From contig CAOJCG010000002.1 of assembly GCA_948356915.1 (NCBI GenBank), positions 128,484 through 192,483 of the forward strand: 64,000 bases of DNA, read 5' to 3'. The position numbers and the translations under genes were made by a program. Positions 35,916-55,701 of the stretch are shown piece by piece. Under the pieces are notes generated by a model. The model was not told the origin of the DNA. It ran no database searches and saw only the letters and a program-made list of their open reading frames with translations. Each line of letters opens with the position of its first letter. Within the stretch, counting starts at the first letter, position 1. This DNA is from an uncultured Clostridiaceae bacterium (GTDB lineage: Bacteria > Bacillota > Clostridia > TANB77 > CAG-508).

Positions 35916-36080
35916 AAGACATATCCTCCAAATTAAAAGTTTTTATTATTTACATTTTTCTTATTCGCAATTATACTATTTTTTTAGGTATTTGTAAATA
36001 TTTTAGACGTAAGTTTTTATAATTTCAAATATAATTGTAAGGCTTTGATAATGTACATAAAAAATTTTTAGATTATTAAT

Positions 36081-36200
36081 TTACAAGTATTGGAAAATAT
36101 TGTATATTATATTTAGCAATAAAAATTTCTTTAAAAAAGTGGTTCAGGATGAAATGAACTCCCCTAGTCTATCCACTAGGGGAGTTTCCTTATTTCTCAA
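36081..36200 (+). ncRNA. Type I TA-like module, copy D (sRNA-only). It has a promoter (TTACAA-N16-TATATT) and ~85-nt of hairpin sRNA. Its terminator abuts the 3' end of lipoprotein gene 36228..36734.
   Basis: Homologous to the modules at 39.0, 42.2 and 43.2 kb. Hairpin gaactcccctagtctatccactaggggagtttcc. Confidence 0.4.
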
Positions 36201-36227
36201 GTTCTTTAAGTATTAACTAAATAATTA

Positions 36228-36734
36228 TTACTTTAATTCTCTAAAAGTTACCATATAAAAATCGCCATTAGTATAGCCTCCAGTATTCATAGAAGTACTT
36301 ATTCCGAGAACTTCATTGTTGTTTCCATCAAAATTTGTTAGAAATCTAAGATATTCTTTCTCACTTCTTGTTCTAAATATTGAAACTTTACCAGTGACTC
36401 TCACATCTTCTCTAGGCTCGTCTAACTTTTTATAGGTTACCATATAAAAATCATCACTGGTGTAACCTCCAGTATTCATACAAGTAGTCACTCCAAGGAT
36501 CTCATTATTCCTTTCGTCAAAATTTTCTAAAAAAGTTATATACTCTTCTACTTTTCTTGTTTCATATACTGATACATTACTATATTCTTCTACTTTGGAC
36601 ACTTGAGCTTTGGTTTTCGCTTGTGTTCCTTCATTAGGAAGTGTAATAATTTCACTTCCTAATGAATCGCTACAGCTAGCCAAAATTAGCATAAAAAAGC
36701 ATACTAAAGTAATTGTGATAATCCGTTTTCTCAT
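36228..36734 (-). CDS. Lipoprotein with an internally duplicated ~55-aa domain.
   Basis: Lipobox LASC, and two repeats ...FL(E/T)NFD(E/G)(R/N)NNE(I/V)LG(V/I)(T/S)T(C/S)MNTGGYT..DFYMVT(Y/F). Confidence 0.6.
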   Translation of the reverse strand: MRKRIITITLVCFFMLILASCSDSLGSEIITLPNEGTQAKTKAQVSKVEEYSNVSVYETRKVEEYITFLENFDERNNEILGVTTCMNTGGYTSDDFYMVTYKKLDEPREDVRVTGKVSIFRTRSEKEYLRFLTNFDGNNNEVLGISTSMNTGGYTNGDFYMVTFRELK

Positions 36735-36986
36735 AAAAATATTCCTCCTTATAATTATTATACGAGAATTAACTGTTACATACTATTTTAAATAGTTATA
36801 AAATATACTTATATTATATATTAGTTTTACATAAATTGCAAGTAATTTTTATTCAAAATAGAATAAAAGATGACTTTTCTACACTGGCGAGCGATACTTG
36901 CTCCCTGCAACCCCAACTTAAAATAACTTACTTTACTAGTATAAAAAAATCCATTAGTGCTGTTGCACTAATGGATTTTTTATATA

Positions 36987-37751
36987 CTAAAAAAGAAATC
37001 TCTCTAACGTTTGTGCTATTTCCTTCTTAGTTTCGCATTCTGCTGTGATTCCTTTTTCATTTATAATCATAGCCCAGTGTTTGCCATTTCCTATTTTTGC
37101 TAAGTCATTTGCTACTATATAGTCTGCCTTATTTTTTTGCCTTAGTTTTGAAGCTACATCGTAAAGTTCTTCTTTGCTTACTCCTTCTAAAAGCTTAAAC
37201 CCTACTAAAGTTACTTCTGGTGCCATTTGCTTTATTTTACTAATTACTTTTGGCGTTAATGTTAGCATTGTCATAAGGTGTGGCTCATAGGATGAAATTT
37301 TTGTTGTATTATTGCATACAGTTTCAGGATTTTCAAAAATGCTCATAAGCATTTCTTTTGTAATTTGTTCCTTACTTTTTGCATTTTGTACTTTCTCCCA
37401 AATTTCGTCAACTAATTCTTCTGCCCTTATAGCATATTTACCTGCATAGTCTCCTACTGCTGCTGAGTGAATTATTATATCAATTTTTTTTGTAGCAAAA
37501 ATTTCTTCTAGTGCCTCAATTAAGTCTTGTGTTGACTCAACTGTTATAAATTGTATCTTTTCACTCTTTACTTTAGGCTTATAAGACATCTTTGTTGAAA
37601 TATAATAAATTGTTTCAATTTCTTCATTTCTTTCTTCTAAAAATGTGTCTGCTACAGCTGCTCCTAATGCTCCTGTTGACATATTTGTTATTTTCATAAC
37701 AGCATCAATCTTTTCATTTGTTGGACCACTTGTAATAATGATATTCTTCAT
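36987..37751 (-). CDS. coaB: Phosphopantothenate--cysteine ligase (stand-alone CoaB).
   Basis: ITSGPTNEKIDAVMKITNMSTGALG matches the DFP/CoaB N-terminal motif. Confidence 0.75.
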   Translation of the reverse strand: MKNIIITSGPTNEKIDAVMKITNMSTGALGAAVADTFLEERNEEIETIYYISTKMSYKPKVKSEKIQFITVESTQDLIEALEEIFATKKIDIIIHSAAVGDYAGKYAIRAEELVDEIWEKVQNAKSKEQITKEMLMSIFENPETVCNNTTKISSYEPHLMTMLTLTPKVISKIKQMAPEVTLVGFKLLEGVSKEELYDVASKLRQKNKADYIVANDLAKIGNGKHWAMIINEKGITAECETKKEIAQTLERFLF

Positions 37752-37828
37752 ATTTTTTCCCTCCTATAATTTTTCTACTATAATGTTTTTTGGGTTACTT
37801 GAATACTTATCACTTCTTCCAAATATGC

Positions 37829-38050
37829 TTAATACAAATATGTCATTTCTGGAAATAAAGATATGTCTGGCTTACGCTTTTCTATTATAGAAAATGCTGC
37901 TTCTAATTGTGAATTAACCTCTTTTGTTTCAATTATATATTCGTCTACACTATTGCAGTCTAAATTAACCTTTAATTGAAACATACATACTGATAAATAA
38001 TCATCTACCCGCATATTTTTTATGCTCCTTTCTTCTTTTGATATTTGCAT
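37829..38050 (-). pseudogene. Possible N-terminal fragment of a carbon-nitrogen hydrolase (ends ...ISLFPEMTYLY*). The rest is absent.
   Basis: The LFPE catalytic-Glu motif sits at the correct distance from the start. There is no downstream continuation in any frame. Confidence 0.3.
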
Positions 38051-38130
38051 TATAATTTATTTTTTGATATAATTCAAATATATATTATTTATATTTATTA
38101 TAACTGGAGGTTATATGATGAATATTAATT

Positions 38131-39006
38131 ATGAATCCTATAAAATATTTTATACTGTTGCTCTTTATCGGAAGTATTACTAAAGCTGCTAATTCACTAT
38201 ATATTTCTCAGCCTGCTATTACTAAAACGATAAAGAAATTAGAAACTGAACTTGGAATTACTTTATTTAATAGAGGGCCTAAAGGGGTAGTTTTAACTCA
38301 AAATGGTAAAATTTTTTATGAATTTATCAAAAATGGAGTTGAGAGTTTTATTAATGGTGAGCATAAGCTTACTTCTTTAAAAAACCTAGAAACTGGTACA
38401 ATAAGGATTGGTGCAAGTACTACAATAACAAAATATTTCTTACTTCCTTTTATTGAAAAATTTCACAATCAGTTTCCTAATATTGATATTTCTATTACTA
38501 ATAGTTTAACTAATCGATTAATAGCTGATTTAAAAAAAGGAAGTCTTGACCTTCTAGTAGTTAACCTTCCTACTCAAAATGATGACACTCTAATTATTAC
38601 TCCTTGTGCTACTTTGCAAGATTGTTTTGCTGGTAATTTAAGTTATAAGAAAAAAATTTTAAAAGAAATATCACTTGAAGATTTGGTAACAAATTTTCCT
38701 ATTATTACTCAAAAGGAACCTTCTAATACAAGAGCATTTTTAAACTCTTTAATGGAAAAAAATAATATTTCTTTTCATCCTAAATTTGATATTGTAAGTT
38801 ATGCATTAGTAAAGGATTTTGCTAAAATTGGTATGGGGATTTCTTATATTACAAAGGAATTTGCTAAAGATGAATTAGAAAATGAGCTTCTTTTTGAAAT
38901 TCCTATAAAGGAAAAAATTCCAAAGAGAAGTTTAGGTATTGTTTTACCTAAAAATACTATTACAAGTTTTGCTACGGAGAAGTTTATTGAATTAATTACA
39001 AATTAA
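38131..39006 (+). CDS. LysR-family transcriptional regulator.
   Basis: N-terminal HTH (ANSLYISQPAITKTIKKLE) and a LysR substrate-binding domain. Confidence 0.85.
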   Translation: MNPIKYFILLLFIGSITKAANSLYISQPAITKTIKKLETELGITLFNRGPKGVVLTQNGKIFYEFIKNGVESFINGEHKLTSLKNLETGTIRIGASTTITKYFLLPFIEKFHNQFPNIDISITNSLTNRLIADLKKGSLDLLVVNLPTQNDDTLIITPCATLQDCFAGNLSYKKKILKEISLEDLVTNFPIITQKEPSNTRAFLNSLMEKNNISFHPKFDIVSYALVKDFAKIGMGISYITKEFAKDELENELLFEIPIKEKIPKRSLGIVLPKNTITSFATEKFIELITN

Positions 39007-39030
39007 TATTAAAACTATTCTTATTTTTTA

Positions 39031-39303
39031 TTGACAAAAGTTGGAAAATATTGTATATTATATTTAGCAATGAAAATTGCTTTAAAAAAGTTGTTCATGG
39101 CGAAATGAAATCCCTTAGTGTGTGCGTACACTAAGGGATTTTCCTTATTTGTCAAAATCTTTTAGTATTAAGTAAATAATTGTTAATGCTATTATCTTTA
39201 GTATTCTATCATGGCGATTACCTCCTTTCTACCTTTTAGGTAAAAGGTGTCTTCATTATACATTATGTATATTTATTTTTCTAGAGCTTCGACAAAACTT
39301 CTT
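39031..39303. repeat. Type I TA-like module, copy C. The promoter (TTGACA-N17-TATATT) and sRNA (about 39066-39150, +) are intact. The peptide gene (39145..39212, -) is frameshifted by a 1-nt loss and lacks an in-frame start.
   Basis: Aligned with copies A and B. The RBS cctcc is retained. Confidence 0.45.
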
Positions 39304-39349
39304 ATTATATGGCATTTATTCTTATTTTTTGCAATTATAATTTCTTTAA

Positions 39350-40600
39350 TTATAACATTCCTTTATAATATTTCCATGCAATAACATTTTTAGCTTTTGT
39401 ATAAATATCTCCCTTAGTAATTTTTCCATTATTTATTCCTGTTTTTACTGCTTTTATAATATCATCATAATTTTCTTTTGATGCTTTATTTATTGTAACT
39501 ATTATAATGTCATTTCCTGCTGAAATAGCATTTATTATTGCTTCTTCTATAGTATACTCATTTGCTATTGCCCCCATGTTCATTGCATCTGTAATAATAA
39601 TTCCCTCAAATTTTAAGTCTTCTCTTAATAACTTATGTATTTTAGGTGAAAGTGATGCTGGATTTTCTGGGTCTATGCTTGTTACTATGTTATGGCTTAT
39701 TAGTACAGCTTCTGCTCCTTCTTCTATACCTACCCTAAATGGCTCTAAGTCATTATTGTATATATCTTCATAACTCCTTTCATCTGTTGATGTAGTTTTA
39801 TGTGTGTCTACATTGTTTCCATAGCCTGGAAAATGTTTTAGTGCATATGATACATTACTTTCCTTACTTGCACTTATTACTGTTTTTGCAAAAGTAGCTG
39901 TTATTTCTTTTCCTTGTTTTAATGACCTTTTATACATATAGTCTGTCTCTTTTTCACATATATCTACCACTGGAGCCAAGTTTAAATTAATTCCTAAATT
40001 ACTTAAAAATTTGCTTTTATTTATTGTATCTTGCCAAATTTCCTCGAAACCTCCATTTTGATATATTTCACTTGAATATTTAAATGGTTCGTTTATTAAT
40101 TTTTTGTTACTACTAACTCTTACAACATTTCCTCCTTCTTCATCTACTGCTATTAAAAGTGGTACTTTTGAGACTTCATTAAATTTATTTATTTCATTTT
40201 GTATTTGTTTTTCTGTTTTATCTTTGAAGAAATCTGCAAAAAATAAATATCCTCCAAATTGCTTTTCTTTCAATTTTTCAAAATCACTAGTAGTATGTGT
40301 TCCTACTAAAAATAACTGTGCTATTACTTCATCTTCGGTTAATTCTTTTAGTTTTTCTTCTGCTTTTTGCATATAATTGTTAAGCTTTAATTTATTAGAA
40401 TTATCCTCTTTACTTTCTAACACATTCTTATTTTTGCTCGCCTCCTCGTTAATTACTTCTTGTTCTTTTTCTGCTTTTGTTTGTCTTTTTATATTTATGG
40501 CAAGTGTAAAAACTCCTATAATTAGTATTAAGGCAATAATACTTATAATTATTAATGTTTTTCTTTTATATTTTATTAAATTGTTTTGTTTTTTGTTCAT
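39350..40600 (-). CDS. Glycoside hydrolase family 3 N-terminal domain protein (NagZ-like beta-N-acetylhexosaminidase), membrane-anchored.
   Basis: LIAVDEEGGNVVRV, KHFPGYGN..DTH and an N-terminal TM. Confidence 0.7.
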   Translation of the reverse strand: MNKKQNNLIKYKRKTLIIISIIALILIIGVFTLAINIKRQTKAEKEQEVINEEASKNKNVLESKEDNSNKLKLNNYMQKAEEKLKELTEDEVIAQLFLVGTHTTSDFEKLKEKQFGGYLFFADFFKDKTEKQIQNEINKFNEVSKVPLLIAVDEEGGNVVRVSSNKKLINEPFKYSSEIYQNGGFEEIWQDTINKSKFLSNLGINLNLAPVVDICEKETDYMYKRSLKQGKEITATFAKTVISASKESNVSYALKHFPGYGNNVDTHKTTSTDERSYEDIYNNDLEPFRVGIEEGAEAVLISHNIVTSIDPENPASLSPKIHKLLREDLKFEGIIITDAMNMGAIANEYTIEEAIINAISAGNDIIIVTINKASKENYDDIIKAVKTGINNGKITKGDIYTKAKNVIAWKYYKGML

Positions 40601-40632
40601 TTTCGTTTACTCCTTTATTTTTATAAAACAAA

Positions 40633-40775
40633 AGGGCACAGTGGTATCATTGCCAACGAGGTATTTCAACAAACGGCCCCTACATCGTAAAATTTGATTT
40701 TTCCTATACTACAAGAAAGAGGCATAGTGGTGTCATTTCTAACAAGTATTCCAACAAACGGTGTCCCTACATTTT
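40633..40775. repeat. Tandem pair of CCCCTACA-family units, ggca(c/t)agtgg...aacaaacgg(c/t)(c/g)cctaca, with the aaatttgatttttcctatact core between them.
   Basis: Read directly from the sequence. See also 6115-6168, 8161-8215, 15509-15636, 40855-40913 and 42455-42525. Confidence 0.5.
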
Positions 40776-40788
40776 TTTATTTTGTTGG

Positions 40789-40830
40789 TAAAGAATTGGT
40801 CGCGTCCCAATTCTTTACCAATTCTTTATA
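40789..40830. repeat. Copy 3 (variant) of the GACGCGTC-family palindrome, aaagaattggtcgcgtcccaattcttt, plus a 2x tandem accaattcttt.
   Basis: Read directly from the sequence. Confidence 0.6.
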
Positions 40831-40854
40831 AATGCAGAAGGTGGCTGATTTTAA

Positions 40855-40913
40855 ATTTCTAGGGTTATTTCTTCGAAGACTGGGTCGCCCTTTAGTAGCG
40901 ACCCCTACAATTC
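40855..40913. repeat. CCCCTACA-family unit ctagggttatttcttcgaagactgggtcgccctttagtagcgacccctaca.
   Basis: Read directly from the sequence. Confidence 0.55.
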
Positions 40914-40936
40914 TATTTTTTTGTCTAAACATTGTT

Positions 40937-41719
40937 TTACTTTAATGACATTATTGCGGTATTTCTTCCTGCGTTTTGTTTATCTACTCTATATGAGTGT
41001 AATACATCTTTATTGCATACTGTACATATATTACTTTCTATTATATTTTCTTTTAGCAAGCCAATTTCTTCTAACATTATTCTATTAATTAGATTTGTAT
41101 CTATAAAATATTTCTGTTTTCCTTCTTTTACTTCTCCTTTTTCTATTATCCTATCATTTATATTCATATATGAAAAAGTAGTTTCAAAAATATTTTTTAC
41201 ATCTTCATCTACTTCAAAATGACATTTTCCTATTGCTGGGCCTATACAACAAATGATGTCTTCTGGTTTTGAATTATATTCTTCTATCATTTTCTTTACT
41301 GCTACACACGCAATTTTGTTTGCAGTTCCCTTCCAACCTGAATGTATATCTCCTATTACATTTTTTGCTGGGTCATATAAATAAATTGGTGTGCAATCTG
41401 CAAATCTTAATGAAAATGATATTTCTTTTTTATTTGTTATAAGCCCATCTACTTTGTCTGGCTTAGTTCCTTGATTTTCTATTATTTGTACGAAATTACT
41501 ATGTATTTGTTCTTTTATTTTTACACATTTTTTATAGTCCAAGTTTAAGCTTTCATATAATGTTTTATAGTTTTTACCATCATCTTTTTCATAGTTATTA
41601 CTTCTTGTTGTATAGCAATGTGTAACTCTATCTTTATACTCTAATAACTTTCTAAATTGTAAATATTCTATATCTCCATCTTTTATATGCACCACGTTTT
41701 CGTTTGATAAGTCTTTCAT
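40937..41719 (-). CDS. pgeF: YfiH/PgeF-family (DUF152) purine nucleoside phosphorylase/laccase-domain protein.
   Basis: RFADCTPIYLYDP, GDIHSGWKGT and CIGPAIGKCHFEV. Confidence 0.8.
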   Translation of the reverse strand: MKDLSNENVVHIKDGDIEYLQFRKLLEYKDRVTHCYTTRSNNYEKDDGKNYKTLYESLNLDYKKCVKIKEQIHSNFVQIIENQGTKPDKVDGLITNKKEISFSLRFADCTPIYLYDPAKNVIGDIHSGWKGTANKIACVAVKKMIEEYNSKPEDIICCIGPAIGKCHFEVDEDVKNIFETTFSYMNINDRIIEKGEVKEGKQKYFIDTNLINRIMLEEIGLLKENIIESNICTVCNKDVLHSYRVDKQNAGRNTAIMSLK

Positions 41720-41928
41720 TAAAGCTCCCTCCCTCTTTTAATATATATTACTATACCATTTTATATAATTCAATATTTTGTTACTTTTTAAGTTTCTATA
41801 TTTTTTGAAAAAAATATAAAAACTTAAACTGAATAATTATTAACATTTTAAGGCAATTATAGTATTCTTATAGAAATAAACTTATATTACCTTTATAAAC
41901 TGATAATTATCATAGAAAGGAGCTCAAT

Positions 41929-42177
41929 ATGTCTGAAGTGAAAATTCCTAGAGGCGATAAAAACGTATATGAAAAATTTGATATGGATAATTGGATGTGT
42001 CTCCCCACATATGACCGGAGTAAGGCAACTACATTCTTCGATGTAGCTAACTTAGTATATTGTCGTTCTGAGATAAGTCAATTAACTGATGAAGAATTAA
42101 AGAATCTTGATGTAAAAGAAATATTTTCAAGCATTGCTGAAAATAAGCAGCGTAATGGAGGTAAATTAGGAAATTAA
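41929..42177 (+). CDS. Hypothetical 82-aa protein.
   Basis: ORF track, with an RBS aaaggag. Confidence 0.35.
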   Translation: MSEVKIPRGDKNVYEKFDMDNWMCLPTYDRSKATTFFDVANLVYCRSEISQLTDEELKNLDVKEIFSSIAENKQRNGGKLGN

Positions 42178-42250
42178 ATTGCCAATACTTTTGTTTACAT
42201 TTTTTATTTTTTTAATTGACAAATGTTGGGAAATAATGTATATTATATTT

Positions 42251-42335
42251 AGCAATGTAAATTGCTTTAAAAAAGTTGTTCATAGTGAAACGAACTCCCC
42301 TAGTGTGTGAGACTAGGGGAGTTTCCTTATTTGTC
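42251..42335 (+). ncRNA. Type I TA-like module, copy A: candidate antitoxin sRNA driven by TTGACA(42216)-N17-TATATT(42239). Two hairpins, ending in a bidirectional terminator.
   Basis: Consensus promoter read directly. agcaatgtaaattgct and gaactcccctagtgtgtgagactaggggagtttc hairpins, then a T-tract. Confidence 0.5.
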
Positions 42336-42395
42336 GAATTCTTTGAGTATTAAGTACACTATTATTAATGCAATTATCTTCTGTATCCTGCTCAT
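42327..42395 (-). CDS. 22-aa hydrophobic peptide MSRIQKIIALIIVYLILKEFDK, a candidate type I toxin. Its 3' end overlaps the sRNA terminator.
   Basis: Strong SD aaaggagg 8 nt upstream of the ATG. Conserved in copy B with conservative substitutions (S2N, I7M). Confidence 0.5.
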   Translation of the reverse strand: MSRIQKIIALIIVYLILKEFDK

Positions 42396-42454
42396 AGTGA
42401 TTACCTCCTTTCTACCTTTTCGGCAAAAGGTGGCTTTCTTTACCGAGTAAAAGG

Positions 42455-42525
42455 CACGGTGCCCCGTGCCCCTACTGTACAAAATTTTAAATTGATTTTT
42501 CTTATATAATAAGGAAAGTCGGTGC
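42455..42525. repeat. CCCCTACA-family unit ggcacggtgccccgtgcccctac...aaattgatttttcttatataat.
   Basis: Near-identical to 8161-8215. Confidence 0.5.
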
Positions 42526-42552
42526 AGTTATAAGCTACACCAATTACTTGTA

Positions 42553-42987
42553 TTACCTCTTCTTTCTATACAGTCTCACCGTAGAAACATGATATCCATT
42601 GTCAAATGCTATTGATGTGAAACTGTCTTTATGGAAGTCTTCTGCTGTTTCAGGACTTTCAATAATTTCAAATGCATTTACAAAAGGAAGGTCATATTCC
42701 TTAATTTGTGAAAGCACTTCACTGATACTTGGCTCGAATAATCCGTAATATCCATAGCGATGTAAGCAAACAAAATCTCTGCCTTCCAGTACCTTAAGTT
42801 CACCTTCTCTAACTTCTTCTCTTACATCTTTGTCATAATTCCACAGGTAACTGATGCCTGTAAGCTCTTCCCAAGTAAACTCTCTTAAATAGTGTAGTTT
42901 ACCGTTAACTGTAACAACTGGCTTAATCTGCTCATAGCGTTCCTTTAACTCTTCATTTGAAATTTTAGGTATTGATACATTAAACAT
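42553..42987 (-). CDS. Hypothetical 144-aa acidic protein, GC-elevated, sandwiched between TA-like modules A and B. The start is MFNVS at 42987.
   Basis: ORF track with an RBS ggaggt. Local GC is visibly higher than its surroundings. Confidence 0.5.
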   Translation of the reverse strand: MFNVSIPKISNEELKERYEQIKPVVTVNGKLHYLREFTWEELTGISYLWNYDKDVREEVREGELKVLEGRDFVCLHRYGYYGLFEPSISEVLSQIKEYDLPFVNAFEIIESPETAEDFHKDSFTSIAFDNGYHVSTVRLYRKKR

Positions 42988-43188
42988 TATAACTACCTCC
43001 TTGAATTTTCTTGGAGGCTTAGAAACCTCCAAGTTGTTGAACTATTGGTTTCTAAACAATCTAACATTTGTATTATATAATATTTTACATAAAATTGCAA
43101 GCGGTTTTACAAAAATTTACTTATAAATAATTATTATATTTTTCATTTTTCGATTGACAAATGTTGGAAAATAATGTATATTATATTT

Positions 43189-43270
43189 AGCAATGTAAAT
43201 TGCTTTAAAAAAGTTATTCATAGAGAAATGAACTCCCCTAGTCTTGTACACTAGGGGAGTTTCCTTATTT
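43189..43270 (+). ncRNA. Type I TA-like module, copy B sRNA, driven by TTGACA(43154)-N17-TATATT(43177).
   Basis: Same architecture as copy A. Hairpin gaactcccctagtcttgtacactaggggagtttcc. Confidence 0.5.
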
Positions 43271-43333
43271 GTCAAATTCTTTGAGTATTAAGTACACTAT
43301 TATTAATGCTATCATCTTCTGTATTCTATTCAT
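43265..43333 (-). CDS. 22-aa hydrophobic peptide MNRIQKMIALIIVYLILKEFDK, a candidate type I toxin.
   Basis: SD aaaggagg, and convergent with the sRNA. Its 5'-UTR carries the anti-SD-like hairpin ccttttgccgaagagg. Confidence 0.5.
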   Translation of the reverse strand: MNRIQKMIALIIVYLILKEFDK

Positions 43334-43422
43334 AGAGATTACCTCCTTTCTACCTCTTCGGCAAAAGGTGGTATTATTATATATTATGTTAAATTGTTTT
43401 TCTAGTACTTCGACAAACGTTC

Positions 43423-46400
43423 TTATTTTTCGACTATACTTTTTATTTCTTCTAGAATCTCTTGCTTTTCTTTTTTGCCAATGTAGTTATAATTATTTCC
43501 ATAGCTACCTGCTTTAAATTGGCATATCGATTTATATTCACAGTATTCGCATGGTGTTTTCTTTGTTTTTGTATTGTAATATGGGTTTAAGTTTATATTT
43601 CCGCTTAGTATTTCTTCTGATATCTCTTTTATTATTTTGGCTGTATATTTTTGTAAGTCTTCAAATTGCTCTTTTGTTACTGCATTTGACTTTTTGCTTA
43701 GGTTTCCTTCTTTATCTATATATGCTGGTACTACATTTGAGTTTCCGCTTTCTAGCTTTTTGTCCATCATTTTTACTACTTTTACATCTGCTAGTATTAA
43801 CCCATTCATTTTAAATTTTTTCTTTAGTTCTTCTTCTATTTGTTCATCTGACATATATTTTTCTGCTTTTATTACTGGGTCTATTAAGCTAAAGTAAAGT
43901 ACCCCTGCTGGGAACATTTCTTCTATTTTACATGTTGCATCTAGGTATGTTAAGAGCTGAATTTGAAGCCCTGCTACTACTTCATTTAAGTCTATATTTT
44001 TTACTGAAGATTTATAGTCTATTATTCTTATATATTTTCCGTTTTCATCTTTTGCTAAGTCTATTCTGTCTATTTTTCCGGTTATTTCTACTTTCTTTCC
44101 ATCCTGTAATTGCAGGCTTATTGGTTCGTAGTCTTTTCCTTTTTTAAATTCTAGCTCACTTCCAAATACCTGAAAGTCACTTTCTTTCAAACTTTCTATT
44201 ATATATTTCATAGACTTTTGTATTACTCTTTTTAGCCTTCTTGTTAGTAATTTATATTTGTCTGTACTTGTAAATATATAGTTTTTACTAATTGATAGTT
44301 TTTCCTCTACAATTTTGTCTATTAGTTCATACATGTGCTCTTCTGTTATTTCTTTTACATCTAATTCTTTTTCTCTTATTGTTTTAAAGAATGTATCTAT
44401 TACATCATGCATAAAGTTTCCTGTATCTACCATTTGTACTTTGAATTCGTTTGTATCACGTATTTTTAAACCATATTTTAAATAGTATGAAAAACCACAT
44501 GCTTTATATTGTTCTAGTCTTGATACTGTTGTATTTAGTGTGTTTCCATATAATTTGTCTATATTTTCTTTTGAAATTTTTTCTGGCTTATTTGTATAGT
44601 TTAATGCTTTTATTGCTGATTCTAGTTTATATTTCCAATCTTCGTTTTTACTTAAAATTTCATATATTTTAAACCAAATTTTATCTATTTTTTCTCCATC
44701 TCTAAACTTTGCTAAATTTACTATTAGTTCATCAAAACAAGAATTTCCTGAAATTATTTCATTTTGTTCATACACCATATCGCTTTCTTCTTTTAATTTT
44801 GGAAAAATCTTTTTTATTTTTGTTACTAAAATTGATGGTCTTAATGAGCTTCCATCAATATTTGTTGATACATAAGATAGAAATAGCTTTTCTTCTGCTG
44901 TGCAAAATGCTTTATAAATGCTAAAGTTATCTTCATAAAGTGCTTCTAAAGTGCCTTTTGCAAGTTCTATTCCTTTTTCTTTTAGTTTTTTTCTGTCTTC
45001 ATCTCCTAAAAATCCTTCGTCTTTATGAACTGTAGGAAATGCTCCATCATTCATTCCTAAAATAAATACTGCTTTTACTTTATGTGTTCTACTTCTTTCT
45101 ATGTCTCCTACTATTACTTGGTCAGCAGTTTGTGGTATTCTTCCTAAGCCACTTGAGTTTAAACCTATTTTTACTAAGTTCATATATTTTTCAAAGCTTA
45201 TTTTCTCTTCTTCAAATATCATATTTAGTTCATCTAGCACATTTATGACTATGTTCCATGCCAATTCTTGTTCTTTTGATAGCTCTATATGTCCTTCTTT
45301 TTCTAATTTTTCTTTTTTATCTATAAGTGTTTTATCTATTTTGTTTTCTATTAGAAAGTTATATATTGCCTTTGTTATATTACCAACTGTTTTGTTTCTC
45401 AAAATATCTTCTTTTAACTTAACTAATGGATTTACTACTATGTTTCTAATGTTTTTTATTCTTTCTAATTGCTCTTTATTCTCCTTTGTTTCATCACCAA
45501 AGTTCCATTCTCCTTGGTACCATTTTGAGCCTTTTATTCCCCACTTTTTAGAATAGTTTTCAAACATATATATATCATCATTATCTAAGTTTAAAAAACC
45601 TGTTTTTATATAATTTATTATAGAATCATAAGACCAGCTTTTTGCGTATACATCTAATATACTCATTATATATTTTATAAAAATGTTTTGACTAAGTTCT
45701 TTTTTCTCATCTATAAATACTGGTATATCATATGCTTTAAATATCGCTTTTACTAAACTTGAATAAGTATCTAAATTTTTTGTTATTACTGAAATGTCTT
45801 TATATCTGTAATTTTCATTTTTTACTAATTTTATAATTTGTTTTGCTACATTTTCTATTTCTGAATATGCATTTGTAGCTAAAAATAACTTTATATTATC
45901 CACATTTCTTTCATATATTGTGTATGGTATTTTATATATGTTTTTCTCTATATGTTTAAGTTCTTTACTTTTAAATCTATACATTTCTTCTAGAAATATT
46001 GTTTTTTCACATTCTATATTATTTTTTCTTGCTAAATATAATAGCTTGTCAGCTGTTTGCTTGTTAGAATAGAATATATCTGAATCTTCATTTGTTCCCA
46101 TGTCTAAGTTATTTGTTGTTACTGTTATAGATATTTGTTTGGCTACTTTTAAAAGTTTTTCTATTATTTTATATTCTTGCTTTGTATAACCTGTAAATTC
46201 ATCTATATATATTAAAGTATCTTTAAACATATTTGTATTATCTAGGTTAGCCGCGAGTATTGTTAATACATCATTTTCGTCTATATATTTATCTTGCAAG
46301 CTTTTTTCAAATTTTTGATATATATATTGTAAGTCTTTTAACTTTTCTTTTAAGTATCTATCTTCTTCTATTTCTATTAAATTTTGTATGTTCTCTAAAG

Positions 46401-46780
46401 TAACATTGTGCTTTTTAAATTCTGTTAATGCTGTATCTATAAGTTCTACATTTTGCTCTGATTTGCCTAAAAATTTTAAATTTGTTTTGCTGTCTTGTAA
46501 AATGCTATAAATAATCATAGCTTTGGCAGATTTGGATATTTTTTTGTCTATTACTCCTCCGAACTTCATTCTCTACCCTGTATGCCATACGTTTAAATGT
46601 TAAAACTTCTGCATTAACAATAGCTCCAGTTTCTTGTTTATCTAGTAGCTTTTTTTCTGCTGAGTATGAAAATTGTTCTGGGGTTATTATATATATTTTA
46701 TTTTTATTGTTACTGTTTAGTTTTTCTATTGTTTCGTTTAAGCAAAACTCGCTTTTACCGTGTTCCGCTTCTTCCGCATA
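43423..46780 (-). CDS. addB: ATP-dependent helicase/deoxyribonuclease subunit B, interrupted by three +1 frameshifts at in-frame CGG codons (plus-strand CCG at 46775, 46758, 46559). No addA follows it.
   Basis: The 1048-aa body plus the N-terminus in other frames gives M-GRSGT-GKSEFCLNE...IITPEQFSYSAEK...RMAYRVENEV-GGVIDKK once each extra C is skipped. This restores the Walker A GRSGTGKS. A C-terminal Fe-S Cys cluster is present. Confidence 0.8.
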
Positions 46781-47043
46781 TTAACCTTAAGCTCATATTT
46801 AGTCTCCTTTTAATATCCTTTTAGATAATAACATATAATTATTATAGCATATAATAATATTTAATACTATTATTTATTTAGTTTTTTAGTAATAATAATT
46901 AATTATTATTTTGCACCTTTAAATGTAATTTATATAGAAAATTAGACATTTTTCATGCTTGCTTTTTTGGTCTTTATTATATATAATCGTACTGTATAAG
47001 TTTTAGATGAAAAATATTTTTATTAATCAAGGAGATGAAATAA

Positions 47044-54673: not shown

Positions 54674-55040
54674 TTATTCTTTTGCTCCTTTTTACTTTTT
54701 TCTCAATTAACATTTTTGTGTCAAAAAAGGACGTCTTTTTTTGACAGTCCATTTTATTAAAAATTATTTAGATGGTAAAGGCCTAAGTAAATTTTACGGT
54801 TTAGGTCTAGAAGAATTTCTCTATTTTCTACTAACCATTACTGTTTAGCCGTTTCCGTTTAAAGAAAATATCTCCTACTACTATGTATAAAAGTAATAGA
54901 TAGAAACCAGATCGCCACTTAAAATCCGTACCTTAATCCATAAGCCTCCATGCTTTTAATTTAAAGCAAACATTCTAGAAGTTTTCCTTGGGCATACTAA
55001 AAGCTATTGCTAGTCTTTTTTGCAATAATAGTTTCATAAC

Positions 55041-55158
55041 TATAAAGAAGCTATAAAAAGGTGTGTCAAAAGGGATTGGGGATATTGACATACTTTATTT
55101 TTTAAAGATGTGTCAATATCCCCGTCCATTTTGACACACTTTTTTATAGCTTCTTTGG
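55041..55158. repeat. Composite nested palindrome. Outer inverted repeats ataaagaagctataaaaag / cttttttatagcttctttgg enclose two GTGTCAA...TTGACAC hairpin units.
   Basis: Read directly from the sequence. Confidence 0.6.
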
Positions 55159-55701
55159 AAAATTAAATTTGGCCAAATTTAATTTTCTTTTTAGTTAATC
55201 CCAGTATTATCACTCGAGACAGGCTACGCTATGCGTTTTATGTCTTGGCATTCAGCATAGGTTACTCTTAAGCATTTTTCTAAAAAGGTTTCATTAGATA
55301 TATTGCCTAAGCCTCCGCGAAAATAGGGCTTCCTTATATATGCCATTATATAATACCCTAATTTCTTACTCCCTGGATACACACAAAACTGGCATTTCGC
55401 GCATAAACAAGAAACTTCAACGATGTGCCCTTTAGTGGATTTTTAGCCCCACCCTCACAATAGTTGTATGCTACTAGAATAATGCACCATCGTTTTTATT
55501 ATAGCATATTTTTCCAAATTTTCAAGTTCATTTATTGTTATTTCACTTAATTTTCACAAAAATATGATATTAAATATAAATATAGAGGCATTATATATAA
55601 ATTGTTACATAAAAAATATCTAAAACCTCTTGTATTTAATTCAATTATGTGTTATTATATTAAATAGTCAATTTAACAAAAACTTATAGGAGGTGTAAGA
55701 A

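Follow-up and report, generated by a model that had tools for sequence, protein, structure and literature searches.

The window analysed here is 64 kb (64,000 nucleotides, nt) of contig CAOJCG010000002.1, from an uncultured Clostridiaceae bacterium known only from metagenome-assembled genomes (MAGs). It is very AT-rich, with a GC content of 27.4%. Between its genes lies a recurring unit of ~320 bp, which in its complete form holds a promoter for a small plus-strand RNA and, convergent with it, a minus-strand gene for a 22-residue hydrophobic peptide. The unit is examined here as a candidate type I toxin-antitoxin (TA) module. A repeat search placed four copies at 36058-36254, 39009-39330, 42194-42440 and 43132-43451, called c36k, c39k, c42k and c43k below. 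An earlier reading made from the letters of the window alone (the sequence-only reading) had reported a four-copy repeat at essentially these coordinates. A profile built from the four copies recovered all of them at E = 3e-54 to 9e-96 and found no fifth copy in the 64 kb. Conserved cores of 19-39 nt occur 3-4 times, against 0.00-0.01 times expected in shuffled sequence.

The genes around the modules are housekeeping genes, namely those for AddB, a GH3 hydrolase, a LysR regulator, a PgeF-like protein and a CoaB-like protein. Judged by the gene content of the window, the region is not a prophage. Copies c43k and c36k have a gene on the same strand further downstream, and a convergent plus-strand gene faces c39k and c42k. 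The unit has no terminal inverted repeats; its sole inverted repeat is a terminator. An intact 22-codon open reading frame (ORF) is carried by c42k and c43k. The copy said to have lost its peptide frame through the absence of 1 nt is c39k, in which the deletion falls in codon 2. The description of one copy as an RNA half alone, abutting a lipoprotein gene, fits c36k except that c36k also keeps a degenerate tail of the ORF.

The small RNA, the peptide gene and their relatives

The plus-strand promoter TTGACA-17-TATATT, attributed at first to each copy, was found in three; c36k has TTTACA instead. Both boxes and the 17-nt spacing are kept in every copy with an intact peptide gene. The 5' end of the small RNA was placed by assumption 7 nt after the -10 box. 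On the plus strand of 4/4 window copies a GC-rich stem of 13-16 bp is followed by a run of T. Across copies 13 bp of this stem are kept with three pairs changed on both sides, and no part of the module varies more than the terminator loop. The c43k stem was detected as a terminator on both strands, which together with the three compensatory pairs bears out the proposal that one stem serves both transcripts. Over ~45 nt, made up of the terminator stem-loop and the tails, the two predicted RNAs are complementary throughout. The small RNA had also been drawn with two hairpins. The terminator hairpin stands in 4/4 window copies, whereas the first hairpin is predicted in only 2/4 and has no covariation support across copies.

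A separate observation concerns the spacer of the small-RNA promoter (AAtGTTGGaAAATAaTG; 43160-43176, 42222-42238, 39037-39053 and 36086-36102). Across all copies, the 17-nt spacer and the 6 nt that follow the -10 box roughly match the two hexamers in their degree of conservation, and one possibility is that they may form a binding site for a regulator.

Relatives of the unit were sought at the DNA level using homologues of the neighbouring GH3 gene (GH3 78-97% identical) as synteny anchors. The corresponding region of the closest strain, L031, was retrieved through an inserted 144-aa gene. Most of the synteny-anchored genomes carry modules, which occupy four intergenic sites: after addB, GH3, the DFP gene and prs. 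No module was found within the retrieved flanks of L015, L016, L022, L024 and L025 (GH3 61% identical). Most copies in the related genomes keep an intact 22-codon ORF, and the counterparts of c39k in L009, L010 and L031 are intact. Local duplication, patchy presence among strains and internally deleted remnants were all seen, behaviour that is typical of chromosomal TA loci.

Searches farther afield returned little. In species-representative genomes a pattern scan picked up five copies, spread over three uncultured Clostridiaceae/Clostridia MAGs, an undercount that gives no estimate of distribution, as the pattern required CTTTAAAAAAG, which is lost in several true copies. Peptide and terminator patterns found nothing in viral contigs, where the 20-mer TGTATATTATATTTAGCAAT matched one unrelated jumbo-phage locus by chance. 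No copy was found in JGI metagenomes; one scan gave zero matches and another five ordinary promoters that matched by chance. BLAST against plasmids and phages returned no homologue. The only hit, a weak 60-nt match of Fusobacterium phage Fnu1 to the AT-rich promoter region (E = 2e-3), was judged a chance match.

The two intact window ORFs both lie behind AAAGGAGG with 8 nt between GGAGG and ATG, in agreement with the reported hydrophobic peptide ORF and its strong Shine-Dalgarno (SD) sequence. Selection on this ORF had been argued from two copies, a weak basis; 11 distinct ORFs now support it. All 11 variants are open over 22 codons without a stop. The ratio of nonsynonymous to synonymous change (pN/pS) is 0.25 in frame, and three of the other frames lie at 0.67-1.12. 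A value of 0.26 in the antisense frame with the same third positions is accompanied by stops in 3/11 variants. Column shuffles reached the observed in-frame value in 2 of 300 trials. By these substitution patterns, the 22-codon ORF is judged to evolve as a coding sequence under purifying selection.

The peptide consists of a short hydrophobic helix between lysines followed by the charged tail KEFDK. Pro and Trp are absent from all 11 variants, and Gly occurs once only, in the tail. By hand count 11 of the 15 residues from 4 to 18 are hydrophobic. By the criteria of Fozo et al., a type I toxin has no fewer than 10 hydrophobic residues in a stretch of 15 and a C-terminus that is polar or charged. 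The 22-aa sequence thus fits the class of small (<60-70 aa) hydrophobic peptides with a predicted membrane segment and a charged end. The peptide had been described as shorter than known families including Ibs, which is incorrect, since Ibs toxins have 18-19 aa. The usual range of type I toxins in T1TAdb is 20-60 aa (PMC8594479).

The statement that the peptide belongs to no recognised family held up in the family libraries. Three peptide variants had no match in Pfam or NCBIfam at E<=10, and their one match in PHROGs (E = 0.23) is of unknown function. A search for the peptide motif in the searchable literature found no paper. Rfam, whose antitoxin RNAs include 13 type I families (PMC8594479), gave nothing on the modules at the gathering score. 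At E<=10 it gave only sub-threshold overlaps with the PyrG leader (26 vs 65 bits) and Enterococcus sRNA 84 (29 vs 52).

On the peptide strand the -10 box TATAAT is invariant in 11 copies, and the 5' hairpin and GGTAGAAAGGAGG are almost invariant. In minimum free energy folds of six copies, AAAGG at the beginning of the SD is paired with the 5' CCUUUU. An alternative register of the hairpin leaves the SD free. Variation is found only at loop and wobble positions, hence there is no covariation either way. The folds make sequestration of the SD by the hairpin of the 5' untranslated region (5'-UTR) plausible.

Pairing between the small RNA and the peptide start codon

The chief support for a type I system is an element absent from the sequence-only reading. 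A segment of the plus-strand RNA, situated between its 5' hairpin and the terminator, is a repeat, on the same DNA strand, of the sequence across the peptide start codon ~110 nt away. The repeat pairs are TTATTCATAGAGA / CTATTCATAGAGA in c43k, TTGTTCATAGTGA / CTGCTCATAGTGA in c42k and TTGTTCATGGCGA / TCATGGCGA in c39k. In the RNA, this 13-nt segment is complementary to positions -5 to +8 of its own peptide's start-codon region, and its version differs from copy to copy.

Covariation was measured by joining the RNA segment of each copy to its own mRNA start region and counting pairs among the 18 distinct sequences. In the 13-bp RNA-mRNA helix 97.9% of cells are paired, and six helix pairs have changed on both sides, in 20 cells. 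The covariation score is 0.338, versus 0.194 for shuffles, and 0/500 shuffles scored as high. In every slid register the score falls to 0.02-0.12. Changes between the repeat copies also have the form of RNA pairing. The copies of the repeat differ in 29 cells. Of these, 24 show the only two types of substitution by which a G.U pair is preserved, and the other 5 are unpaired. This is expected of RNA-RNA pairing and not of a conserved DNA repeat.

The RNA and start-region versions fall into six matched classes: CATGGCGA, CATAGTGA, CATAGAGA, CAAGGTAA, CATAGCA and CA(A/G)GATGA. L017 has TTG as its start codon, and its RNA has CAA in place of the CAT found in the others. The RNA likewise follows codon 2 through synonymous and Asn/Ser substitutions (GTT, ATT, ACT), third-base changes among them. 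Cognate duplexes have predicted energies of -17.6 to -22.4 kcal/mol overall and -17.6 to -19.7 kcal/mol in the window, compared with -7.1 to -15.5 kcal/mol for non-cognate duplexes among the three window copies.

The sixth class is split between genomes. The orphan c36k RNA, TTCAGGATGA, is in the window, and its matching start region, TTCAAGATGA, has a TTG start and survives only in a remnant with an internal deletion that lies beside the DFP gene of L033-L040. The two pair over 11 contiguous bp at -15.9 kcal/mol, whereas the c36k RNA reaches only -5.6 to -9.1 kcal/mol with other start regions.

Where the peptide gene has been damaged the RNA gene has changed as well. In c36k, which has lost the peptide half, and in L013 and L023, in which that half is interrupted, the -35 box of the RNA promoter has gone from TTGACA to TTTACA and the first hairpin has acquired a mismatch. 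Copies with an intact peptide gene all keep TTGACA and an unbroken first hairpin. This coupled decay of promoter and hairpin is consistent with an RNA that is needed only while the toxin gene is alive. The interruption itself is an AT-rich insertion of ~190 nt that splits the module exactly within the SD (L013 8691-8797, L023 4120-4218).

Features of the four module copies, with window coordinates; RNAs, promoters and target regions are predictions
Feature	Position	Strand	Remark
c43k small-RNA promoter TTGACA-17-TATATT	43154..43182	+	promoter prediction
c43k predicted 83-nt antitoxin RNA	43189..43271	+	ends inferred; 5' hairpin, A-rich linker, start-codon-pairing segment, terminator, U-tail
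c43k 13-nt segment TTATTCATAGAGA	43214..43226	+	complementary to own toxin start-codon region
c43k bidirectional intrinsic terminator	43230..43262	both	common to both transcripts; detected on both strands
c43k intact 22-codon ORF MNRIQKMIALIIVYLILKEFDK and stop	43265..43333	-	
c43k predicted RNA target on toxin mRNA	43326..43338	-	-5 to +8 around ATG
c43k SD and 5'-UTR hairpin	43342..43370	-	GGAGG 43342-43346; hairpin 43350-43370
c43k putative toxin promoter TAGAAA-17-TATAAT	43376..43404	-	directly after addB stop codon (43423)
c42k small-RNA promoter TTGACA-17-TATATT	42216..42244	+	
c42k predicted 83-nt RNA	42251..42333	+	pairing segment TTGTTCATAGTGA 42276-42288; terminator 42292-42324
c42k intact ORF MSRIQKIIALIIVYLILKEFDK	42327..42395	-	target region 42388-42400
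c42k SD and 5'-UTR hairpin	42404..42432	-	
c39k small-RNA promoter TTGACA-17-TATATT	39031..39059	+	
c39k predicted 86-nt RNA	39066..39151	+	pairing segment TTGTTCATGGCGA 39091-39103
c39k terminator	39107-39142		within the predicted RNA; two compensatory stem changes
c39k ORF with 1-nt deletion in codon 2	39145..39212	-	pseudogene or sequencing error; homopolymer 39205-39212
c39k SD, 5'-UTR hairpin and toxin promoter	39221..39283	-	SD 39221-39225; hairpin 39229-39249; -10 39255-39260; -35 39278-39283
c36k weakened small-RNA promoter TTTACA-17-TATATT	36080..36108	+	
c36k orphan predicted 82-nt RNA	36115..36196	+	first hairpin broken; terminator 36156-36187; pairing segment TTCAGGATGA
c36k degenerate 3' tail of peptide ORF	36190..36227	-	..II*LILKELEK*
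Stop codon of 168-aa lipoprotein gene	36228-36230		c36k ORF tail directly downstream; signal peptide LILASC

Candidate mechanism and comparison with known systems

The anatomy of the module, the constraint on its ORF and the co-evolution of its pairing segments are features of the aligned copies themselves. From them the unit is probably a chromosomal type I TA module on the par (Fst/RNA II) plan, the design proposed in the sequence-only reading and now supported by the convergent promoters, shared terminator, constrained ORF and covarying repeat. Antisense control, one mark of the type I class, is indicated at the sequence level by the convergent promoter, the complementarity of the terminators and the 13-bp covarying helix. 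The module most likely represents a previously undescribed family of RNA-controlled TA modules.

In the mechanism that we propose, the firing of both promoters, the ends of the RNAs, the order of pairing and the toxicity of the peptide are all predicted from sequence. A weak minus-strand promoter with the invariant TATAAT would produce an mRNA of ~145 nt with a 5' hairpin, a strong SD, the 22-residue peptide and the GC-rich terminator. A near-consensus sigma-A promoter on the plus strand would produce the convergent RNA of ~83 nt, which would run into the same terminator. The complementary terminator loops would start the RNA-mRNA duplex, and the single-stranded 13-nt segment would then cover the start codon and block ribosome loading. 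The intramolecular hairpin that partly sequesters the SD could hold back translation until the RNA pairs. Once the RNA is depleted, the peptide would act on the membrane.

Loci of the par type have convergent promoters, a bidirectional terminator and direct repeats DRa and DRb covering the initiation region, together with an SD-sequestering 5' stem-loop, an upstream helix that protects the 5' end and often a U-turn loop motif (PMC7472228). The par locus of Enterococcus faecalis plasmid pAD1 resembles the present module in its convergent promoters, its shared bidirectional intrinsic terminator and complementary stem-loops, and a small hydrophobic toxin with a charged C-terminal tail (PMC7472228). 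In the predicted folds of the present module, a 5' structure may likewise touch the SD. Like the present modules, par and its chromosomal relatives often lie between genes of core metabolism (PMC7472228). Here too promoters were predicted on both strands with a terminator between them, and the 18 distinct copies have a direct repeat of 9-13 nt spanning -5 to +8. It is a single repeat (13 nt), whereas par of pAD1 has two, DRa and DRb. The pAD1 Fst toxin is 33 aa long, compared with 22 aa here. No upstream helix at the 5' end was identified in the present module. Toxins of the Fst/Ldr group have PXXXG(C) within the transmembrane helix, and between that helix and the charged tail stands a conserved Trp (PMC7472228); this signature (PXXXG, Trp) is absent from all 11 peptide variants. 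As the signature is missing and Pfam and NCBIfam gave no match, the module appears to work like par without being a member of the Fst family.

In Staphylococcus aureus, SprA1 and SprA1AS pair at the translation-initiation region of the toxin, PepA1, a small membrane peptide like the present one but of ~30 aa. These RNAs likewise overlap at their 3' ends and pair functionally outside the overlap (PMC8594479). PepA1 has been treated as an Fst-family toxin (PMC7472228), and no sequence similarity was found between it and the present peptide. The SprA1 locus lies in a staphylococcal pathogenicity island, unlike the present modules between housekeeping genes. In T1TAdb only Fst/RNA II and SprA1/SprA1AS pair outside the 3' overlap (PMC8594479); by its predicted helix, the present family would be the third such system. 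According to a 2019 review, type I TA systems had by then been validated by experiment in no Clostridia other than C. difficile (PMC6563280).

The CD-toxins of C. difficile, with their RCd RNAs, are likewise small and hydrophobic with charged tails and occur as several paralogous copies. They are longer than 22 aa. The present modules have a par-type architecture and no Rfam match, and the RCd RNAs are set apart from them through Rfam only. Two reports (PMC5961336, PMC7699646) place the C. difficile modules beside CRISPR arrays or in prophages, in contrast to the housekeeping genes around the present modules.

The Ibs/Sib repeats and the Ldr/Rdl repeats (SIB/QUAD and LDR) of enterobacteria encode, in the case of Ibs, toxins that are also very short, and the RNA of each copy discriminates its own target. 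The Sib antisense RNA spans the whole Ibs ORF (PMC8594479), whereas the overlap in the present module covers the terminator and last codons only. The proposed repression relies instead on a separate repeat, unlike that of Ibs/Sib.

Several observations weigh against a par-type TA module. The copies are related by descent, which inflates the shuffle statistics, and the number of independent compensatory events is therefore estimated at ~6-8, not 20. All copies found belong to a single clade of uncultured gut Clostridia (GH3 marker 78-100% identical), so the comparative depth is shallow. The hydrophobic core of the peptide spans only residues 7-17, and a length of 11 residues is short for a helix that crosses the membrane. 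The toxin promoter has a poor -35 box (TAGAAA) and is not recognisable in c42k. The toxin-promoter region common to c39k and c43k is missing from c42k, where the inserted 144-aa gene has put its terminator-like hairpin in that place (about 42451-42473). The U-turn motif (YUNR), which is important in par of pAD1 and is stated as not universal in that family, occurs in 8/15 toxin-strand loops and is not conserved. Pairing also has its exceptions. In the addB-adjacent copy of L031 an AGTG RNA meets an AGAG start region, which leaves a single U.U mismatch inside the helix (-11.9 kcal/mol). The helix of L021_2 has an A.C pair at its end. Perfect pairing is therefore not a requirement. The L031 copy differs from the window copy in one block only, made up of the RNA segment and the terminator loop. 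This block looks like a conversion tract, and the mismatched copy may be an evolutionary intermediate.

All of the RNA-level and coding evidence would fit equally well an antisense RNA that gates a harmless 22-aa membrane micro-protein, with neither addiction nor killing. The housekeeping-gene context, which is not that of a prophage or plasmid, the lack of a homologue in the plasmid and phage search and the very short hydrophobic core agree with such a protein. A harmless protein does not account for several diverged paralogous copies per locus, each with its private RNA/mRNA matching. Nor does it account for copies that are often pseudogenised or internally deleted and are patchy among close relatives, or for toxin loss that is accompanied by decay of the RNA promoter. 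Multiplicity, private matching, decay and patchiness are habits of TA modules and not of a useful single-copy membrane protein, and we therefore consider the micro-protein rather unlikely.

A non-coding intergenic repeat, either similar to repetitive extragenic palindromes (REP) or miniature inverted-repeat transposable elements (MITE) or consisting of a bidirectional terminator plus promoter, would make the ORF and the direct repeat fortuitous. The unit is indeed short and repeated, every copy lies just 3' of a gene for which it supplies a terminator, and for the lipoprotein gene c36k acts simply as a terminator. REP and MITE elements have many dispersed non-coding copies, terminal inverted repeats or palindromic units, and no conserved ORF. 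The present unit has only four clustered copies in 64 kb, without terminal inverted repeats, and its ORF is open in 11/11 variants at a pN/pS of 0.25 behind the conserved AAAGGAGG. The sequence-only reading had allowed for a REP or terminator family mostly devoid of the ORF, and the retention of the ORF by most copies in related genomes speaks against this. The six covarying pairs between segments ~110 nt apart would also go unexplained, and a non-coding repeat is very improbable.

A leader peptide or attenuator for a downstream minus-strand gene could be imagined from the short ORF, its strong SD, the hairpins on both sides of it and the same-strand gene beyond c43k and c36k, and was rejected on gene orientation as scarcely credible: c39k and c42k have nothing to regulate because a convergent plus-strand gene faces them, the downstream neighbours vary between genomes, the ORF is not enriched in any single regulatory amino acid, and a strong promoter faces outward from beyond the terminator.

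As a type I TA module, the unit is a new family of a known kind of system and not surprising in principle to a specialist. It would extend the par-type regulatory plan to a non-Fst peptide in uncultured gut Clostridia. Its recognition helix can be read from natural covariation, which makes the family unusually informative. With at least six matched RNA/start-codon specificities, including the mismatched L031 copy and a switch from ATG to TTG, it offers a compact system for the divergence of cognate RNA-RNA recognition after duplication and the avoidance of cross-talk between paralogues. The 13-nt recognition code could serve in orthogonal translational repressors for low-GC Firmicutes. At 22 residues, the peptide lies near the lower bound of length for a membrane-active toxin. 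Its ORF falls below the usual minimum gene length, and type I toxins are missed by gene callers because they are so small.

The modules are also ~320-bp homology blocks with mutually insulated RNA/mRNA specificities, and they lie beside strain-variable small genes. The 144-aa gene, the 82-aa gene and the lipoprotein gene are flanked by modules in this way, between core genes. It is conceivable but distinctly unlikely that the modules act as portals for recombination, at which accessory genes enter, are exchanged or change their order, and that the toxin stabilises the DNA between two copies. If true, the region would be a TA-bracketed hotspot for gene cassettes.

Neighbouring genes and other features of the window

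The interval between addB and the pgeF-like gene varies in gene content between strains, and its variable genes are bracketed by modules. The order in the window (41929-43131) is addB, module, 144-aa gene, module, 82-aa gene. In L021 (7240-8660) it is addB, module, 82-aa gene, module, and a gene for a 153-aa protein that is 83% identical to the 144-aa protein. Strains of the L033 type (L033 6540-6990) have the 82-aa gene only between addB and the pgeF-like gene, and L034 and L038 (L034 6078-6990) have the 144-aa gene only and a module remnant. The 82-aa and 144-aa proteins have no match in Pfam.

The lipoprotein gene and the 144-aa gene share a promoter core of ~45 nt on the minus strand (36809-36849 and 43068-43108). 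It reads TTGCAA-17-TATAAT with the same spacer and contains ..CTTGCAATTTATGTAAAA..TATATAAT..; the leaders that follow are unrelated. The core also precedes the orthologues in L021, L033 and L034, and may be the site of a common regulator. The 168-aa lipoprotein belongs to no Pfam family and is an internal tandem duplication of ~158-nt repeats (36234-36391 and 36423-36580, 73% identity). Both halves carry ..NFD..NNE.LG..T.MNTGGYT..DFYMVT... The lipoprotein gene lies on opposite sides of the module in the window and in L033, where the protein is 71% identical.

The match of the AddB ORF (1048 aa) to the ADDB_N profile begins only at position 75 (addB 5' end, ~46400-46900). Several relatives have a separate ADDB_N ORF of 81-94 aa that overlaps the main addB start (L013 5224-5481, L021 3582-3827, L033 2883-3167). 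The pattern points to a frameshift, to a wrongly called start or to an assembly problem that recurs at the 5' end of addB.

A full-length OLE (ornate large extremophilic) RNA was found at 54756-55506 on the minus strand (Rfam RF01071, 287 bits, E = 1.5e-80). The match covers model positions 1-616, and the presence of OLE RNA in this lineage of uncultured gut Clostridia may merit recording.

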